DNA of 24,000 nt, taken from the NCBI GenBank assembly GCA_044226645.1, contig JBGAGR010000023.1, forward strand, positions 1,409 through 25,408, read 5' to 3'. Source of the DNA: Aggregatilineales bacterium (GTDB lineage Bacteria > Chloroflexota > Anaerolineae > Aggregatilineales > Phototrophicaceae). The position numbers and the translations under genes are program-made. Position 1 is the first letter of the stretch. Every line of letters begins with the position of its first letter. The notes beneath the pieces were generated by a model. The model was not told the DNA's origin, searched no databases, and worked only from the letters and a program-made list of their open reading frames with translations. This document shows positions 2,308-20,389 of the stretch, piece after piece.

Positions 2308-3576
2308 TTATTTCTTCATGAGTTCGTCAGCAACGGCAGAAGCATCGCTGACAACATCTTCAGCCAGTTTATTACCGCTGAAGGCTTCCTGTAGGCTGGC
2401 GTTGAAGGTATCGTTGAACTGATTCCAACCCGCAGGCAGAATCCAGGGTACCGCATAAGCCGCACCAGCCGGGAATGAACCCAGTTCGGCTGCCAGATCA
2501 CCCATCTTCATATCGGTCAGCTTCTTCGTCCAGGTATCCTGCCATGCCTGTGTCGCGCTGGCACGAGTCGGCAGTACACCGAAGCCGCTGGTAGCAACCA
2601 TCATTTCGCCTTCTGCGCCGGTCAGGAAATTGACCAGCTTCCACGATTCATCGGGATGGGCATTGCTCTTGGCATTCACGCCGTAGCATACCGAGTAAAT
2701 CATAGTGGCCTGTCCACCATCCGGTCCCTTCGGCAGTTCGGAAACGCCCCATTGCAGGTCAGGCGCGTTATCCAGCATCGGCTGAATGACCCAGTTGCCT
2801 TCCATGACCATCGCGGCGCGGCCTTTCCAGAGGGCTTCACCACCCCAACCAGAGTCCACTGCTGAACTCGGCGCGGCGGTTCCGGCTGTGACCATATCGA
2901 GGAAGTAGCTGATCGCGCCAGTGGTCGCGTCACTGTTGAAGGTATAATTGCCATCGGCATCGAACAGCGAACCGCCATTCTGATAAACGAAGGGCAGCCA
3001 GCGGTTCAGGTCAGCAGGCAGTACCAGACCGATCACCTTATTGCCGTCCTTATCGGTTCCGGTCAGCTTTTCAGCCGCAGCCTTCAGGTCATCCCATGTC
3101 CAGTCGGCAGTCGGATAAGCGACACCTGCCGCATCGAACATGGCCTTGTTATATTCCAGGCCGAGGATCGAGTAATCCTTCGCCGGACAATAGAGTGTAC
3201 CATCCTTCGTGAACATATTACGCAGAGCGGGGAAAATGTCATCGGGATTTTCGATTTTATCCGAACCATCCGCGATTACCCCTGCGTCTGCCCATGAATT
3301 GAAGACATCGCTGTTGACATAGAACACTTCAGCATAATCGCCACTGGCAAACGCGGTCTGCATGGTGGTGGCGTATTCCGGCAGCGGATTAAACTCAACT
3401 TTAATATCGGGGTTGGCTGCCATAAAAGCATCCAACATCGTTTGCAGTGCGGCATCTTCCGCAGGGCTGGAAGCCCAACCCGCCAGACGCAGTGTAACCG
3501 GGTCTTGTGCCTGTGCCAGACCGGTGAGCGAAAGCGCCAGCACCATGACTGCTACGAATACAAAGAACTTACGCAT
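2308..3576 (-). CDS. extracellular sugar-binding protein of an ABC transporter (SBP family 1)
   Basis: N-terminal Sec signal 'MRKFFVFVAVMVLALSLTGLAQAQ' with no lipobox Cys. The Trp/Asp/Gly-rich body is typical of sugar SBPs. I prefer the ATG at 3576 over the track start at 3588, because codons 2-3 of the longer ORF spell GGAGGAG (3587-3581), an SD correctly spaced for 3576. Confidence 0.85.
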   Translation of the reverse strand: MRKFFVFVAVMVLALSLTGLAQAQDPVTLRLAGWASSPAEDAALQTMLDAFMAANPDIKVEFNPLPEYATTMQTAFASGDYAEVFYVNSDVFNSWADAGVIADGSDKIENPDDIFPALRNMFTKDGTLYCPAKDYSILGLEYNKAMFDAAGVAYPTADWTWDDLKAAAEKLTGTDKDGNKVIGLVLPADLNRWLPFVYQNGGSLFDADGNYTFNSDATTGAISYFLDMVTAGTAAPSSAVDSGWGGEALWKGRAAMVMEGNWVIQPMLDNAPDLQWGVSELPKGPDGGQATMIYSVCYGVNAKSNAHPDESWKLVNFLTGAEGEMMVATSGFGVLPTRASATQAWQDTWTKKLTDMKMGDLAAELGSFPAGAAYAVPWILPAGWNQFNDTFNASLQEAFSGNKLAEDVVSDASAVADELMKK

Positions 3577-5860: not shown

Positions 5861-5889
5861 TTAAACGTTTAATTCACTTAAACGTTTAA
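5861..5889. promoter_or_regulatory. two tandem LacI-type operator palindromes TTAAACGTTTAA
   Basis: Two identical, perfectly palindromic, CG-centred 12-mers at 5861-5872 and 5878-5889, each inside the 14-nt direct repeat CTTAAACGTTTAAT. Centres are 17 bp apart. They lie 17-45 nt upstream of the GH65 start, in the divergent region shared with the LacI gene at 6072. Confidence 0.65.
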
Positions 5890-7878: not shown

Positions 7879-7907
7879 TTGACAATTCACATGATTTCTG
7901 ATAACGT
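7879..7907 (+). promoter_or_regulatory. sigma70-like promoter of the second LacI gene/operon
   Basis: TTGACA (7879-7884), a 17-nt spacer, then TAACGT (7902-7907, which keeps the TAnnnT positions). The -10 lies inside the palindromic operator. Confidence 0.5.
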
Positions 7908-7929
7908 TATCAGAAATCGTTATCAGAAA
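7893..7929. promoter_or_regulatory. 26-bp perfect palindromic LacI-type operator plus an extra half-site
   Basis: GATTTCTGATAACGTTATCAGAAATC (7893-7918) equals its own reverse complement and is CG-centred. The half-site CGTTATCAGAAA is repeated at 7905-7916 and 7918-7929. The region ends 12 nt before the ATG at 7941. Confidence 0.7.
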
Positions 7930-14932: not shown

Positions 14933-16387
14933 ATGACCGCAATCGATCAGGTAATCGCAAATGGGCCATTTCAGGCATCATGGGACTCGCTCAAACACTA
15001 TTCAGTACCCGACTGGTATCAGGATGCTAAATTCGGCATCTTTATCCACTGGGGTCTGTACGCCGTACCAGCCTTCGGCAACGAATGGTATCCCCGCAAT
15101 ATGTATTTGCAGGGATCGGAAGAATTCAAGCACCACGTCGAAACATATGGCTCACATGCAAAATTTGGCTACAAGGATTTTATTCCGCTGTTCAAAGCCG
15201 AAAAATACGACCCCGATCATTGGGCGCAGGTATTCAAGCAAGCAGGTGCTCGCTATATTGTGCCTGTAGCCGAACATCACGATGGATTTGCCATGTATGA
15301 CTCGGCATATTCGAACTGGACTGCTGCAAAGATGGGGCCTAAGCGCGACCTTATTGGCGATCTTGCTGAGGCAGTACGCAAGCAGGGTCTCATCTTTGGT
15401 CTATCGAACCATCGCGCCGAACACTGGTGGTTCATGAATGGCGGGATGCAGTTTGACTCGGATGTTCAGGATGACCGATACCGTGACTTTTACGGGCCAG
15501 CCAAACCCGGCCCTAGAAATTGGGAGGATAAATCCTGGTACAACCGGGATTGGGAACCGAAACCGGACGAGGCCTATCTCAACGACTGGCTGGCTCGAAA
15601 TTGTGAATTGGTCGATAAATATCAGCCGCAGCTTGTCTGGTTTGACTGGTGGATTGAACAAAACATATTCGCGCCTTATATCCAGAAGTTCGCCGCCTAT
15701 TACTATAACCGGGGTGCGCAGTGGAATCGTGGAGTAGCCATCAATTACAAACATCATGCCTTCCCTGATGGAACTGCCGTCTATGATGTCGAACGTGGAC
15801 AGCTTTCTGGCATTCGTCAGTTGTTCTGGCAGACCGATACGGCTGTCTCGAAAAACTCATGGGGTTACGTCAAGAATCAGGATTACAAAACCGTTGATGA
15901 TATTGTGGATGACCTGATTGATATTGTCAGCAAAAATGGCACACTGCTGCTCAACATTGGGCCTCGCCCGGACGGAACTATTCCTGAGCCAGAGGAAAAA
16001 CTCCTCCTTGGAATAGGGGAGTGGCTGGCACAGAATGGTGAGGCGATTTACGGAACGCGCCCTTGGAAAGTTTTTGGCGAAGGCCCGACGCAGGTCAGCG
16101 AAGGTCAGTTCACCGATACTCAGCGATCTGCTTTCACTGGTCAGGATATTCGCTTCACGACCAAAGACGACGCTTTATATGCAATTGCGCTGGCGTGGCC
16201 CGGTGGTTCAGTGACAATCAATTCACTTGGCAGCACTGCCGGATTATGGTCTGCGGAAATTGCCAATGTTCAGCTTCTAGGGTACCCAGACAATTTAAAC
16301 TGGCAGCGCGATGCAAACGGACTGACGATTCAACTACCCGGTCAACCACCGGGGCAACATGCGTTTGTATTCAAAATTACGAGATGA
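14933..16387 (+). CDS. glycoside hydrolase family 29 alpha-L-fucosidase
   Basis: 484-aa ORF. 'WYQDAKFGIFIHWGLYAVPAFGNEWY' is the classic GH29 N-terminal motif. Also 'AEHHDGFAMYDS' and 'LVWFDWW'. Confidence 0.85.
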   Translation: MTAIDQVIANGPFQASWDSLKHYSVPDWYQDAKFGIFIHWGLYAVPAFGNEWYPRNMYLQGSEEFKHHVETYGSHAKFGYKDFIPLFKAEKYDPDHWAQVFKQAGARYIVPVAEHHDGFAMYDSAYSNWTAAKMGPKRDLIGDLAEAVRKQGLIFGLSNHRAEHWWFMNGGMQFDSDVQDDRYRDFYGPAKPGPRNWEDKSWYNRDWEPKPDEAYLNDWLARNCELVDKYQPQLVWFDWWIEQNIFAPYIQKFAAYYYNRGAQWNRGVAINYKHHAFPDGTAVYDVERGQLSGIRQLFWQTDTAVSKNSWGYVKNQDYKTVDDIVDDLIDIVSKNGTLLLNIGPRPDGTIPEPEEKLLLGIGEWLAQNGEAIYGTRPWKVFGEGPTQVSEGQFTDTQRSAFTGQDIRFTTKDDALYAIALAWPGGSVTINSLGSTAGLWSAEIANVQLLGYPDNLNWQRDANGLTIQLPGQPPGQHAFVFKITR

Positions 16388-16599
16388 ACGTTTCTGCCAC
16401 GCGAAAGGCGCAGAAGGTAGCAAGCAGATAATCCAGCAGTTACTTTGTCGCAGTGAGTATGCTGACTGACAAATAATCAATTACATTCAGTCTGACAATA
16501 GAGATCGAAGGTAAGGGATAAAAGCGCATTGTTGGGGTATCATAGCGAACTGACTGCATCATTTGAAGACGACATAATTTTTGATGGAGACAGTACAAA

Positions 16600-16907
16600 T
16601 TGTAAACGACCCCACACCGAAAGGTGGAGGCTTTCAATAACCCAACGTTTACCCGACTCAGGCTTGAAACAAAGCCTACGTTAGGGGCGAATAGATAGGC
16701 ACTTCGGGATGCTTCACCAGTCCCGAACCCTGCGGTATACGATTAAACAGGCTAAAGGGAATATGCCAGTGTCGTATACATGATTGAACAAGGGGACGCT
16801 ACGCGCACGAAAGTGTTTGCAATCCCCTTATTCAATCAAAACCGCTCCATAACATTGTCAAGGTGAGCTTTACTCCCGCAAGGGAAGATTATTGAGGTAA
16901 CTCAATG
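16600..16907 (+). ncRNA. candidate omega RNA scaffold of the IscB system (5' end and guide position not determined)
   Basis: Dense perfect local stems:
- 16602-08/16646-52 (7 bp), enclosing the CACC-GAAA-GGTG hairpin (16615-26)
- 16660-65/16672-77 (6 bp)
- 16703-09/16721-27 (7 bp)
- 16735-42/16772-79 (8 bp)
- 16781-96/16823-38 (8+7 bp around one C/A mismatch, tipped by CAC-GAAA-GTG)
- TCCC-GCAA-GGGA (16874-85)
- ATTGAG-GTAA-CTCAAT (16891-906)
The region lies directly upstream of iscB, on the same strand, and overlaps its start. Confidence 0.6.
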
Positions 16908-18233
16908 CAAAGAGTTCTGGTCGTAGATAAGAACAGACAGCCGCTCATGCCCTGCTATCCAGCGCGAGCAAGAGAATTGCTGCGAAAAGGGAAGGCAGCG
17001 GTACTGCGTCGTTATCCCTTCACCATCATCATAGATCGTGCAGGTGGGGATACCCAACCCGTAGCTTTCAAGGTTGACCCTGGCAGCCATCAGACTGGGC
17101 TGGCATTGGTCGCCGATTTCAAGCGCGGGAAACGACTGATCTGGGCAGCAGTGTTGGAACATCGTGGTCAGCAAATCAAGAACGCACTGGAAAGTCGCCG
17201 CGTACTGCGCCGCAGTCGCCGCAATCGGCATACGCGCTACCGTCCCGCGCGCTTCAATAATCGTCATACCGATAAGAGACACCTGCCGCCATCGCTTCAA
17301 TCCCGAATTGAGAATATTTGGACGTGGTTTTCTCGCCTCCATAATGCCTGTCTCATTACCTCTTTATCTCAGGAGTTGGTTCGTTTCGATACTCAACTGA
17401 TGCAGAATTCCGAAATCAGCGGTGTAGAATATCAGCAAGGTGAGTTGGTCGGATACGAAGTGCGGGAATACCTGCTGGAAAAATGGGGACGCAAGTGTGC
17501 CTACTGCGGCGCGAAGGATGTTCCTTTGCAAATTGAACATATCACGCCGAAAGCACGCGGCGGTACAAACCGGGTCAGCAACCTGACCATCGCTTGCAAG
17601 CCGTGTAATCAGGCCAAGAACACGCAGACAGCAGCCGAATTTGGACACCCACAGGTACAGGCGAAAGCGAAAATGCCGTTGAAAGATGCAGCGGCGGTTA
17701 ATGCGACCCGTTGGGCACTGTTTCGCCGTCTGGAAATGACTGGTTTGCCACTGGAAATAGGGACAGGCGGACGCACCAAATACAATCGAGTGCAGCAAGG
17801 CTATCCAAAAGAACATTGGATTGACGCAGCTTGTGTGGGAGAAAGCGGAGCAAGCGTGTTGATTGAGCTGAAGCACATCCCTGTGCACATCACGGCGACG
17901 GGTCATGGCTCACGGCAAATATGCCGAACCGATCCATATGGTTTTCCAATTCGCCACCGCTTGCGTCAGAAACGCCATTTTGGTTTTCAAACGGGGGACA
18001 TGGTGAAGGCCAATGTCTCATCCGGCAAATACAGCGGGAAACACAGTGGACGTGTGGCTTGCCGCGCCACCGGACGCTTCGACATCAGGACGACTTGTGG
18101 CAAAGTCACCGTCAGCCACAGGACTTGCAAGATCGTTCACCACTCAGATGGCTATAGCTACCAGAAAGGAAGAACAACGCCTCTGCGAAACGTCCCAGAC
18201 CCAAGGATCGGGGTTTCCGGCGATGTTTATTGA
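16905..18233 (+). CDS. iscB: IscB-family RNA-guided endonuclease (PLMP + split RuvC + HNH; OMEGA system effector)
   Basis: 442-aa ORF with these motifs in IscB order:
- 'NRQPLMPC' PLMP motif (aa 11-17)
- RuvC-I 'FKVDPGSHQTGLA' (D58)
- Arg-rich bridge helix 'RRVLRRSRRNRHTRYRPARFNNR'
- RuvC-II 'SQELVRFD' (E157)
- HNH 'CAYCG...LQIEHITPKARGGTNRVSNLTIACKPCNQAKN' (H212)
- RuvC-III 'KEHWIDAACVG' (H304, D307)
- C-terminal 'GFQTGDMV...GRVACRATGRFDI...HHSDGYSY'
GAGG SD sits 7 nt upstream of the ATG. Confidence 0.85.
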   Translation: MQRVLVVDKNRQPLMPCYPARARELLRKGKAAVLRRYPFTIIIDRAGGDTQPVAFKVDPGSHQTGLALVADFKRGKRLIWAAVLEHRGQQIKNALESRRVLRRSRRNRHTRYRPARFNNRHTDKRHLPPSLQSRIENIWTWFSRLHNACLITSLSQELVRFDTQLMQNSEISGVEYQQGELVGYEVREYLLEKWGRKCAYCGAKDVPLQIEHITPKARGGTNRVSNLTIACKPCNQAKNTQTAAEFGHPQVQAKAKMPLKDAAAVNATRWALFRRLEMTGLPLEIGTGGRTKYNRVQQGYPKEHWIDAACVGESGASVLIELKHIPVHITATGHGSRQICRTDPYGFPIRHRLRQKRHFGFQTGDMVKANVSSGKYSGKHSGRVACRATGRFDIRTTCGKVTVSHRTCKIVHHSDGYSYQKGRTTPLRNVPDPRIGVSGDVY

Positions 18234-20389
18234 TGACTGAATCTACCTCAACTCAACCAACCGAATTATTGCCTGCTTATCTGGATTCTTCCCGTTCCAT
18301 CGCTGAACGTGTGGAGGATCTCCTATCGCGCTTGACACTGGATGAAAAAATCGGGCAGATGTGTAACGTGACTCAGGCGATTCCACGTTTAAACATCCCG
18401 GCCTATGACTACTGGAGTGAGGCGCTGCACGGGGTCGCCGGAAATGGACGTGCAACGGTTTTCCCGCAAGCTATCGGTATGGCTGCAACCTGGGATCCGG
18501 TACTTGTCCAGAAAATCGCTTCAGTAGTCGGTGACGAAGCCCGCGCCAAATATCACGAGGCACTGCGGCGCAAAGGTTCTACAGGGATGTTCCAGGGATT
18601 GACTCTGTGGTCGCCGAATATCAACATTTTTCGTGATCCGCGCTGGGGGCGGGGGCAGGAAACCTGGGGCGAAGATCCATTTTTGACAGGCGAAATGGGC
18701 GCTGCCTATGTGCGCGGGCTTCAAGGCGATCACCCGAAGTATCTCAAAACGGCGGCCTGTGCCAAACACTTCGCAGTACACAGCGGGCCGGAAAAACTGC
18801 GCCACACGTTTAATGCGAAGGTCTCACCTCGTGACCTGAATGCGACTTATCTTCCAGCTTTCAAAAAGCTGGTCATGGAAGCTGGAGTTGAATCTGTCAT
18901 GGGGGCTTATAACCGCACCAATGATGAACCGTGCTGCGGCAGCCCGTTTTTGCTGGTTAAGACGTTACGTGGCGATTGGGCTTTTCAGGGACATGTCGTG
19001 TCAGACTGCGGGGCAGTCACCGATTTTGACCAGGGTCATAAAGTAACCGCTGATGTCGTCGAAAGCGCCGCCTTAGCGCTCAAAGCAGGCTGCGACATGA
19101 GCTGCATATGCGCTTATGAACATCTGGGAGAAGCAATTGATCGTGGGCTGATTACGGAAGCGGATATTGATCGTTCACTGGGGCGTACTCTCACGACTCG
19201 TTTTAAGCTCGGTATGTTTGATCCGCCTGAAGATGTTCCCTATACAGCGATTCCCATGAGTGTCGTCGGCAGTTCTGACCATCGTCAGTTGGCTTACGAA
19301 GCTGCTGTAAAGTCGGTTGTGCTGCTGAAAAACAAGGACAATATCCTGCCGATCCGTGAAGAAAATCAGAAAATTATGCTGGTCGGCCCGAATGCTGCGA
19401 GTATCGAGGTGCTGCTGGGCAATTACAACGGCCTGAATGATTCACTGATGACCTTTATGGAAGGTATTGTCGCACGTATACCAGAAGGCAACGAACTGCG
19501 CTACCATCCCGGAAGCCTGCTCAACCAGCCTGCTGAAGCACCAGAGTGGTTGTTGAGCGGTTCATCGAGCTTTGACGTGACCATCGCTTGTATGGGGATC
19601 ACGCCATCGATGGAAGGAGAGGAAGGTCATGCGCTCCTTTCCGCCGAGCAAGGTGATCGTGCGGAAATCACCCTGCCACCCGCGCAGGCCGAACATCTCA
19701 GGAAACTGGCGCAGAATGGTGCTAAAGTGGTGCTGGTGCTTACCGGCGGCAGTCCCATTGCCCTGGGCGACCTGGAAGACCTCATGCAGGCGATTGTGTA
19801 TGTCTGGTATCCCGGTCAGGAAGGTGGCAGAGCAGTCGCCGATGTGCTGTTCGGTGATGTGGCTCCTTCCGGCAAACTACCACTGACATTCCCGAAATCG
19901 GTGGAGCAGCTTCCGCCCTTTGAAGATTACGATATGACCGGGCGAACTTACCGCTATGCGACACAAGAACCGCTTTTCCCATTTGGCTTTGGCCTGAGCT
20001 ACACCCGCTTCACCTACAGCGATCTGAAGCTGGACAGGACTACCATCCGGGCGGGAGAATCGCTGTCACTTCACTACACCCTGACCAACAGCGGTGCAGT
20101 GGAAGCGGAAGAAGTCGCCCAGGTTTACCTGACTGATCTGCAAGCCTCAACAGTTGTGCCCCTGCACAGCCTAATCGGTTTCCAACGAGTCCATCTCAAA
20201 TCTGGAGAGCGAACCGTCCTTACCTTCACCATAACCCCTGAGATGATGAAACTGGTGAATGATGCCGGAGATCGCGTGCTGGAACCCGGCGAGTTCCGGG
20301 TAACAGTTGGGAGCTGCTCGCCGGGTGAGCGTGGCGCGCGGCTGGGCGCTTCTACGCCCCTCAGCATGACCTTCACAGTTGCCACGTAG
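18233..20389 (+). CDS. glycoside hydrolase family 3 beta-glucosidase / beta-xylosidase (BglX/Xyl3-like with Fn3-like C-terminal domain)
   Basis: 'LTLDEKIGQM', 'YWSEALHGV', 'RDPRWGRGQETWGEDP', 'GHVVSDCGAV' (nucleophile-Asp region) and 'PLFPFGFGLSYTRF'. I prefer the ATG at 18233, which overlaps the iscB TGA as TGATG. The track start is TTG at 18230. No SD is visible. Confidence 0.85.
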   Translation: MTESTSTQPTELLPAYLDSSRSIAERVEDLLSRLTLDEKIGQMCNVTQAIPRLNIPAYDYWSEALHGVAGNGRATVFPQAIGMAATWDPVLVQKIASVVGDEARAKYHEALRRKGSTGMFQGLTLWSPNINIFRDPRWGRGQETWGEDPFLTGEMGAAYVRGLQGDHPKYLKTAACAKHFAVHSGPEKLRHTFNAKVSPRDLNATYLPAFKKLVMEAGVESVMGAYNRTNDEPCCGSPFLLVKTLRGDWAFQGHVVSDCGAVTDFDQGHKVTADVVESAALALKAGCDMSCICAYEHLGEAIDRGLITEADIDRSLGRTLTTRFKLGMFDPPEDVPYTAIPMSVVGSSDHRQLAYEAAVKSVVLLKNKDNILPIREENQKIMLVGPNAASIEVLLGNYNGLNDSLMTFMEGIVARIPEGNELRYHPGSLLNQPAEAPEWLLSGSSSFDVTIACMGITPSMEGEEGHALLSAEQGDRAEITLPPAQAEHLRKLAQNGAKVVLVLTGGSPIALGDLEDLMQAIVYVWYPGQEGGRAVADVLFGDVAPSGKLPLTFPKSVEQLPPFEDYDMTGRTYRYATQEPLFPFGFGLSYTRFTYSDLKLDRTTIRAGESLSLHYTLTNSGAVEAEEVAQVYLTDLQASTVVPLHSLIGFQRVHLKSGERTVLTFTITPEMMKLVNDAGDRVLEPGEFRVTVGSCSPGERGARLGASTPLSMTFTVAT

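Follow-up and report, generated by a model that had tools for sequence, protein, structure and literature searches.

What is encoded in the 517-nt gap between a GH29 gene (stop codon at 16387) and the ATG of an iscB gene (16905) within a sugar-utilisation operon of an Aggregatilineales bacterium? The window analysed here is a stretch of 24,000 nt from contig JBGAGR010000023.1, to which all coordinates refer. A sequence-only reading of this DNA had reported that the gap lacks a credible open reading frame (ORF), which agrees with our finding of two short unconserved ORFs only, and had proposed that a dense cluster of helices at 16600-16907 is the omega RNA of the IscB nuclease encoded downstream. 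That proposal is supported by a full-length match to the Rfam family RF02033 (HEARO) on the + strand, with an intact IscB ORF directly downstream. With a probability of about 0.9, 16602-16906 (+) is an IscB omega RNA scaffold (HEARO) preceded by a guide of ~16 nt, on a 1631-bp non-autonomous transposon of the ISC/IS200-IS605 type. Both the RNA and the element are of an already known kind, and nothing here alters what an omega RNA is. Established for this locus are the family membership of RNA and protein, the covariation, both element boundaries, the empty-site reconstruction, the origin of the guide and the catalytic residues.

Identity and anatomy of the leader upstream of iscB

In the whole window, RF02033 is the sole Rfam family matched at its gathering threshold, and it is matched on the + strand only. 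The match (16602-16873; 120.2 bits against a gathering score of 83, E = 1.1e-24) spans model positions 1-211 of 211, with one large insertion at ~16780-16835. A permissive Rfam scan of 16300-18400 returned no other credible family, its one further match being at chance level (E = 0.92, 19 bits versus 75). HEARO has since been identified as the omega RNA of IscB (PMC9755519; Meers et al., bioRxiv 10.1101/2023.03.14.532601), and its role as the guide of IscB has been demonstrated experimentally (PMC9640706; PMC9755519; Meers et al.). The match stops 31 nt 5' of the iscB ATG and is followed by terminal hairpins extending to the ATG; according to Meers et al., downstream elements are missing from RF02033. 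Among the first 20 homologous loci, HEARO lies 5' of iscB in 18, invariably ending ~20-48 nt before the ORF.

The protein encoded downstream belongs to the corresponding nuclease family.

16905-18233 (+): iscB ORF, intact, 442 amino acids (aa), supported by Pfam, NCBIfam and structure homologues; the source record has the same 442-aa product

It contains the Pfam domains RRXRR (residues 4-179, 5.5e-64) and HNH (residues 198-247), and matches the NCBIfam equivalog NF040563 (guided_IscB) with 433.8 bits (cut-off 175) over profile positions 1-314 of 314. It is also matched by phmmer to solved IscB structures, including OgeuIscB (7XHT/7UTN), and its RefSeq homologues, including plasmid ones named iscB, are annotated as 'RNA-guided endonuclease IscB'. 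The protein has the layout of an IscB, with PLMP, a split RuvC, a bridge helix, HNH and a C-terminal region for interaction with the transposon-adjacent motif. The motifs PLMP (13-16) and DGYSY (415-419) are present, and the catalytic residues are kept: D58 (VDPGS), E157 (QELVRF), H212 and N226 (IEHITP...SNL) and H304/D307 (EHWIDA). These motifs align with those of OgeuIscB and other solved IscBs. The closest relatives among the loci searched are 75% (metagenome) and 65% (genomes) identical.

The helices described by the sequence-only reading are all found in place. Four are perfect, comprising 16602-08/16646-52 (7 bp), 16660-65/16672-77 (6 bp), 16703-09/16721-27 (7 bp) and 16735-42/16772-79 (8 bp), while the long helix 16781-96/16823-38 has 16 positions with one mismatch; the four GNRA loops are GAAA at 16619-22, GAAA at 16809-12, GCAA at 16878-81 and GTAA at 16897-900. 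The minimum free energy (MFE) of 16586-16910 (+) is -109.9 kcal/mol, compared with -79.9 +/- 5.3 kcal/mol in dinucleotide shuffles (z = -5.64), a value equalled by none of 100 shuffles. The minus strand of the leader also folds strongly (z = -4.5), so that folding energy alone cannot assign the strand. The strand is assigned as + from the Rfam match and from invariant U-G pairs at alignment columns 167/178 (35 of 35 sequences) and 202/237 (33 of 35), which would be A-C if read from the other strand.

Covariation was assessed in relatives retrieved as tblastn matches to IscB (160 loci, 80 from genomes and 80 from metagenomes), by MAFFT alignment, RNAalifold and pair counting. RNAalifold predicts 62 pairs, 42 of them with compensatory changes, in a 12-sequence alignment, and 54 pairs, 43 of them compensatory, in a 35-sequence alignment. 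The structure tested on the 35 sequences consists of the RNAalifold consensus together with the last hairpin and a pseudoknot, and 50 of its 64 pairs are altered on both sides (for example column pair 98/324, which is CG in 17 sequences, AU in 10, UA in 7 and GC in 1). Cells are paired in 89.8% of cases, compared with 70.3% in column shuffles (reached in 0 of 500) and 31-41% with partners displaced by 1-3 columns, and the covariation score is 0.525, compared with 0.18 in shuffles and 0.06-0.13 with slid partners. Among the checks that the sequence-only reading had proposed for its own claim, folding against shuffled controls, a covariance-model search, compensatory changes among homologous loci and a sharp conservation drop marking the guide/scaffold boundary each bore it out, the last of them at 16601/16602.

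The scaffold has the following parts, named after the OgeuIscB structure paper (PMC9640706).

16602-16906 (+): omega RNA scaffold, ~305 nt, comprising the HEARO core (16602-16873) and two terminal hairpins
16602-16652 (+): guide-adaptor hairpin, with outer stem 16602-07/16647-52; helices 1, 3 and 5 covary
16615-26 (+): adaptor inner hairpin CACC-GAAA-GGTG, with flanks CCCC/GAGG
16655-57/16857-59 (+): nexus-type stem, long-range and covarying
16660-77 (+): hairpin after the nexus stem, enclosed by that long-range stem
16680-88/16844-53 (+): central stem, enclosing hairpins 16703-27 and 16735-79
16610-16612 with 16757-16759 (+): pseudoknot, 5' strand CCC pairing with GGG in the loop of the 16735-16779 hairpin
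16781-16838 (+): lineage-specific extra hairpin, an insert of ~55 nt (~16782-16836) that is an insertion relative to the Rfam model
Between the central/nexus stems and terminal hairpin 1: single-stranded linker
16874-16885 (+): terminal hairpin 1, TCCC-GCAA-GGGA, outside the Rfam model; helix 13, with 4 of 4 pairs compensatory
16891-16906 (+): terminal hairpin 2, ATTGAG-GTAA-CTCAAT, conserved, with compensatory changes (helices 15-16)

The long-range stems and the hairpins that they enclose (helices 6-12, 16655-16859) covary. The pseudoknot joins scaffold nucleotides ~7-12 to the hairpin loop and covaries across 29 distinct sequences, with variants including GACC:GGTC, TCCC:GGGA, AACCC:GGGTT, TACC:GGTA and CACCCC:GGGGTG; each sequence's own pairing averages 4.38 bp, a value reached in 0 of 2000 permutations, versus 3.82 bp for cross-pairing. 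Terminal hairpin 1 has its counterpart in the terminal hairpins of the OgeuIscB RNA (PMC9640706). Terminal hairpin 2 takes in the iscB Shine-Dalgarno (SD) sequence GAGG and extends two bases into the ATG, and its GAG/CTC is replaced by GGA/TCC or AAG/CTT in relatives; its pairing of 65-81% is lowered by ragged MAFFT alignment in this region. The adaptor inner hairpin and its CCCC/GAGG flanks also fit the form of the transposon's subterminal hairpins, and the architecture CCCC-A-NNNN-loop-NNNN-GGGG of the adaptor matches that of the hairpin at the opposite end of the element in relatives.

Two other accounts of these helices bear on their identification as a guide RNA scaffold. That they came together by chance in an AT-neutral intergenic spacer can be dismissed: it is contradicted alike by the shuffles (z = -5.64, with 0 of 100 as stable), the Rfam E-value (1e-24) and the covariation controls (0 of 500), and its only point was the number of stems expected by chance, which in the sequence-only reading was an uncomputed estimate. 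The other account holds that the structure works chiefly in cis, either leading the translation of iscB or forming DNA hairpins recognised by TnpA, and not as a trans-acting guide RNA. The sequestration of the iscB SD and part of the ATG by the last hairpin (16891-16906) agrees with it, as do the shared architecture of the first inner hairpin and the other-end hairpin, and the good folding of the minus strand. Covariation over ~250 nt, involving 16 helices and a pseudoknot, far exceeds what a single TnpA-binding hairpin or an SD-sequestering stem needs, the invariant U-G pairs tie the structure to the + strand RNA, and the guide role of the family is experimentally established. Cis roles are moreover compatible with the guide role and do not substitute for it, and we regard a mainly cis-acting structure as very improbable. 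A riboswitch or other purely cis-acting leader and a purely DNA-level transposon end were both rejected.

The longest helix of the sequence-only reading (16781-16838) exists, but it lies outside the family structure and is a lineage-specific insertion. This GAAA-capped hairpin, with a 16-position stem and one C/A mismatch, lies where the pseudoknot hairpin meets the 3' strand of the central stem, so that the junction there is four-way instead of three-way; the MFE fold shows it as a separate hairpin, with the adjoining helices undisturbed. Spacing was measured between the conserved motifs TTAAAC and AACNTTGNCGAGG in ~90 loci that have both correctly placed, and is 109 nt in the window versus 50-57 nt in nearly all of these loci. 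Longer spacings are also seen in L157 (63 nt) and L036 (Rhizonema, upstream of its iscB; 110 nt, with an unrelated insert sequence). A second copy of the 55-nt hairpin was found neither in the window, with up to 3 mismatches allowed, nor among the 160 loci, so that an origin as a mobile repeat or miniature inverted-repeat transposable element is unsupported. Relatives contain expansions at other positions, including the second adaptor hairpin (L027 and L040, alignment columns ~53-79), the adaptor inner loop (L061, columns 25-38) and the hairpin after the nexus stem (L009, L023, L049 and L056, columns 107-120). The omega RNA thus has several length-variable sites.

Three loci show a further kind of length difference, their tblastn matches to IscB spanning 1.7-1.9 kb versus the usual ~1.27 kb (L016, 3001-4721; L025, 3001-4839; L127, 1374-3276), which suggests interrupted or nested IscB elements; in L016 the HEARO match (3222-3434) falls within the IscB-matched span. 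In another locus (L005), a tRNA gene (2222-2296, -) lies ~450 nt 5' of the omega RNA.

The element, its guide and its insertion site

The element carries the omega RNA and iscB alone, and is delimited as follows.

16602-18232 (+): whole non-autonomous IscB element (ISC2/IS200-IS605-type), 1631 bp, with 5'-GT...TTG-3' termini
16586-16601 (+): guide segment GGAGACAGTACAAATT, from the 5' untranslated region (UTR) of the host GH3 gene, including an SD-like GGAG; unconserved among homologous loci
18181-18232 (+): other transposon end, a subterminal hairpin region that is translated as the IscB C-terminal tail
18233-18236 (+): target site and presumed transposon-adjacent motif (TAM) ATGA, whose ATG is the GH3 start codon; its role as TAM is presumed by analogy

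Conservation sets in abruptly at 16602 (GTAAAC; GTAAACGACCCC) in the 12- and 35-locus alignments and in nhmmer matches, and the 25 nt 5' of this position are unrelated among 46 distinct insertions. The abrupt onset places the scaffold at ~16602-16906 and identifies the unconserved flank at 16586-16601 as the guide. The span of 16600-16907 given by the sequence-only reading is thereby corrected to a structured unit from 16602 to ~16906 with the guide just 5' of it, and the 5' end and guide, which that reading considered impossible to fix from one sequence, could both be fixed by comparison with other loci. At the 3' boundary, relatives have their sequence in common up to ...TTG, followed by ATGA, and then diverge. 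The IscB stop codon TGA (18231-33) overlaps the GH3 ATG (18233-35), forming TGATGA.

The insertion point lies between the SD and the start codon of a GH3 beta-glucosidase gene (18233-20389). The 718-aa GH3 product is 100% identical to a protein on record that starts at the ATG at 18233; most of its closest homologues (78-85% identical) likewise have 718 aa, and the orthologs begin with ATGACTGAA. Two element-free GH3 orthologs (L161 and L163) are contiguous over the junction (...AT(T/A)^ATGACTGAA, where ^ is the position of the junction), with the upstream sequence reading ...GACAAGGA(C/T)(G/A)ATA(C/T)(G/A)(A/G)AT(A/T)^ATGACTGAA, and the window sequence at 16583-16601 fused to 18233 onward aligns with this element-free junction. 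The contiguity of the orthologs therefore delimits a 1631-bp element at 16602-18232, inserted at N^ATGA; the orthologs are ~85% identical at the protein level, and do not represent a same-species empty site. An N^ATGA target and a 5'-GT terminus have been described for ISC elements (PMC4810608). The guide GGAGACAGTACAAATT is homologous to the sequence just 5' of the ATG in the element-free orthologs and occurs once in the window, its length of 16 nt being assumed from characterised IscBs.

No near-identical copies are on record, and the ends are accordingly set by conservation within the clade together with the element-free orthologs. Elements of relatives are 1561-1584 bp long, the excess length in the window being the 55-nt hairpin. 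In relatives, the other end forms an inner hairpin of 8-9 bp, covarying from locus to locus, within an outer GGCGC/GCGCC stem. Both ends of the window element preserve the CCCC-A-NNNN-loop-NNNN-GGGG form, with one mismatch per end. The window contains no second copy of the element, and no near-identical relative is on record. Together with the missing TnpA, this leaves current mobility unsupported. Most IscB elements lack TnpA in cis (PMC9755519; Meers et al.), and its absence therefore weakens the claim of mobility and not the classification.

Transcription, proposed function and the state of this copy

The element is located in a co-oriented sugar-utilisation operon, in the order LacI, solute-binding protein, two permeases, GH31, GH29, element, GH3. 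According to Meers et al., the IscB scaffold derives from the transposon end that they call RE, and the guide needs transcription from outside the element; the co-orientation of the upstream genes fits this requirement. A second possible source of omega RNA transcription is a promoter of GH3 itself.

16538-16543 (+): putative -10 box TATCAT of the GH3 promoter, aligned with TATAAT and TACAAT of two element-free orthologs

The box lies within a conserved TTGTT..G.TA..AT.GC block (window 16520-16601 versus 3880-4000 of L161 and L163). Scanning 16300-18400 for promoter and terminator consensus sequences yielded counts like those of shuffles and did not pick up this box; with the scan at noise level, the promoter is proposed from the alignment with the two orthologs only.

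Directly 3' of the GH29 stop codon lies a hairpin (16391-16417, TTCTGCC...GGCGCAGAA) without a T-run, which the terminator scan did not call; this is compatible with read-through into the omega RNA. In element-free relatives GH3 stands alone beside a LacI gene (divergently oriented in L161 and L162), while in the window it follows GH29. Elsewhere in the window, perfect or near-perfect palindromes at 7893-7929 and 5861-5889 (GATTTCTGATAAC/GTTATCAGAAATC, and TTAAACGTTTAA twice) are intergenic and adjoin two LacI-family regulator genes, and are probably operators.

Expression, processing, ribonucleoprotein (RNP) formation, TAM identity, cleavage and restoration are all presumed by analogy with characterised members of the family. 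Transcription begun outside the element, through read-through of the GH29 operon, from the GH3 promoter or both, would cross the boundary and yield a single RNA containing host flank, scaffold and iscB mRNA. IscB would then bind the scaffold through the adaptor hairpin, nexus and central stems, pseudoknot and terminal hairpins, the RNA substituting for the REC lobe that IscB lacks. The resulting RNP is expected to recognise DNA matching GGAGACAGTACAAATT followed by ATGA, which is the element-free junction, as might arise after TnpA-mediated excision or exist in a naive allele. This junction would be cut by the HNH (H212) and RuvC (D58, E157, H304, D307) active sites, and, by the model of Meers et al., repair off the occupied copy could restore the element. 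The occupied site would be immune because GTAA stands in place of the TAM.

Several features of the locus tell against a functional, mobile guide RNA element. The guide length and TAM are assumed by analogy, no TnpA gene is found among the ORFs of the 24-kb window, and the IscB protein is a singleton 90% cluster, with no protein of at least 90% identity on record. Unlike its relatives, the RNA carries the 55-nt hairpin at a three-way junction; its pseudoknot has 3 bp, compared with 4-6 bp in most of them, there is an extra C-A mismatch in the adaptor/transposon-end hairpin, and the Rfam score of 120 falls within the lower part of what full-length relatives reach (104-150). These features also suit the principal rival explanation, in which the locus is a genuine omega RNA/IscB locus by descent that is now decaying or immobilised, RNP assembly or TnpA recognition being hindered by the inserted hairpin, by so short a pseudoknot and by mismatches in the end hairpins, and the RNA no longer guiding cleavage. 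In favour of this rival, the insertion is unique among ~90 relatives, the pseudoknot is the shortest of 29 sequences (tied with L101 and L129), each end hairpin has one extra mismatch, and the lack of sister copies adds to that of TnpA and of close protein relatives. Against decay, however, the 442-aa ORF is uninterrupted and full-length compared with its homologues, keeping every catalytic residue, and the family helices are all intact around an insertion that is itself a self-contained hairpin, with the junction nucleotides on either side retained. An insert of the same size is tolerated at the same junction in L036, other relatives are expanded elsewhere, and the stem loops on that side of the OgeuIscB RNA make no protein contact (PMC9640706). 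We regard an impaired copy as unlikely, although it retains appreciable weight.

The position of the element relative to the host start codon was compared in a subclade of relatives in which the IscB ORF extends ~24-41 aa beyond the DGY motif, roughly to the element end. An ATG or GTG overlaps the IscB stop codon in 27 of its 38 distinct insertions, and in 16 of these 27 it opens an ORF of at least 70 aa, compared with 21% of all (A/G)TGA sites in the same loci. Elements whose 3' ends coincide with a host start codon include those in L001, L011, L017, L026/L148, L035, L081, L082 and L085, and further in L089, L092, L093, L113, L133 and L152. In a Pfam scan of ten such start-codon ORFs, nine match a family; in most of these (PFK, DUF5131, BatA, YidD, thymidylate synthase and MIP) the domain starts with the first residues or close to them. 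Of the 46 distinct guides, 16 contain an SD-like tetramer between -17 and -5 relative to the scaffold boundary, compared with 2-4 of 46 in control windows.

We tentatively propose, as a generalisation that for now is more doubtful than secure, that in this IscB clade the (A/G)TGA target and presumed TAM is characteristically the host start codon, with the element located between the host SD and ATG and the guide supplied by the host 5' UTR, so that transcription of the guide would be guaranteed by the host promoter. In the same proposal, the IscB reading frame runs through the transposon-end hairpin, with its stop codon supplied by or overlapping the host start (TGATGA or ATGA), an overlap that may preserve translation of the host gene by coupling. 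As a secondary part of the proposal, the 55-nt hairpin may mark a permissive expansion site in the scaffold, a natural expansion at a junction where engineering might tolerate cargo. If general, the arrangement would amount to a strategy of insertion that mimics an operon, both driving expression of the guide and keeping the host's cost to a minimum; confirmed at large scale, it would bear on how IscB elements ensure that a guide encoded outside them is transcribed, and on how harm to the host is limited. The ATGA target has been published before (PMC4810608), and the start-codon association was not found in the literature covered, which did not extend to the original HEARO and OMEGA papers.

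Significance and comparison with known systems

With the identification proposed here, an unannotated 'intergenic' gap of 517 nt is seen to hold the gene for the guide RNA of a compact IscB nuclease (442 aa), guide RNA and iscB together being a mobile-element insertion within a glycoside-hydrolase operon. The IscB/omega RNA pair is divergent, with no more than 75% identity to anything on record, and comes from a Chloroflexota-like context, the best matches of the neighbouring genes being to Anaerolineae/Aggregatilineales; the locus also provides a clean example of the capture of a host 5' UTR as a guide. The RNA is detected at once by a standard Rfam scan.

Compared with the HEARO/OgeuIscB omega RNA (7XHT, 7UTN), the window RNA has the same position and strand relative to iscB, a full-length covariance-model match, an adaptor hairpin, nexus-type and central long-range stems, a pseudoknot-forming hairpin loop, a single-stranded linker, two terminal hairpins reaching the start codon, and a 5' guide from the flank outside the element. 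It differs in size, the window scaffold (~305 nt with the 55-nt extra hairpin) being longer than the 206 nt of OgeuIscB and than the mean of ~242 nt upstream of the ORF (Meers et al.). It also differs in its pseudoknot, which pairs the 5' part of the adaptor with a hairpin loop over 3 bp, whereas the OgeuIscB nexus pseudoknot has a different partner, pairing a loop with a segment downstream of the nexus stem (PMC9640706). The window protein is distant from OgeuIscB in sequence (E = 2e-19) and shorter (442 versus 496 aa).

Among transposons, the ISC2 elements described by Kapitonov, Makarova and Koonin (2016, PMC4810608) are of similar size (1341-1707 bp reported, versus 1631 bp here), and share the single iscB, the 5'-GT terminus, the subterminal imperfect hairpins, the lack of TnpA in cis, the lack of terminal inverted repeats or target duplication, and the insertion immediately 5' of ATGA. 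By contrast, the window element is single-copy, with no near-identical relatives on record and transposition undocumented, and its ATGA is a host start codon, a coincidence on which PMC4810608 is silent.

The TnpB omega/reRNA of IS200/IS605 elements likewise combines a scaffold from the transposon end (RE, according to Meers et al.) with a guide from the adjacent flank, and targets the element-free junction beside a TAM, favouring retention by recombination. The TnpB RNA, however, lies at the 3' end of its gene and is transcribed inside the element, while the IscB RNA lies 5' of its gene and is transcribed from outside; the two RNA folds are unrelated, and TnpB has RuvC only. The type II CRISPR nuclease Cas9 with its crRNA:tracrRNA shares the homologous RuvC/HNH core with bridge helix, and the order of a 5' guide followed by a structured scaffold. 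Unlike in Cas9 systems, the window contains no CRISPR array and no cas1/cas2, the IscB guide is fixed by the insertion site and not acquired, and the RNA is much larger, replacing the REC lobe.

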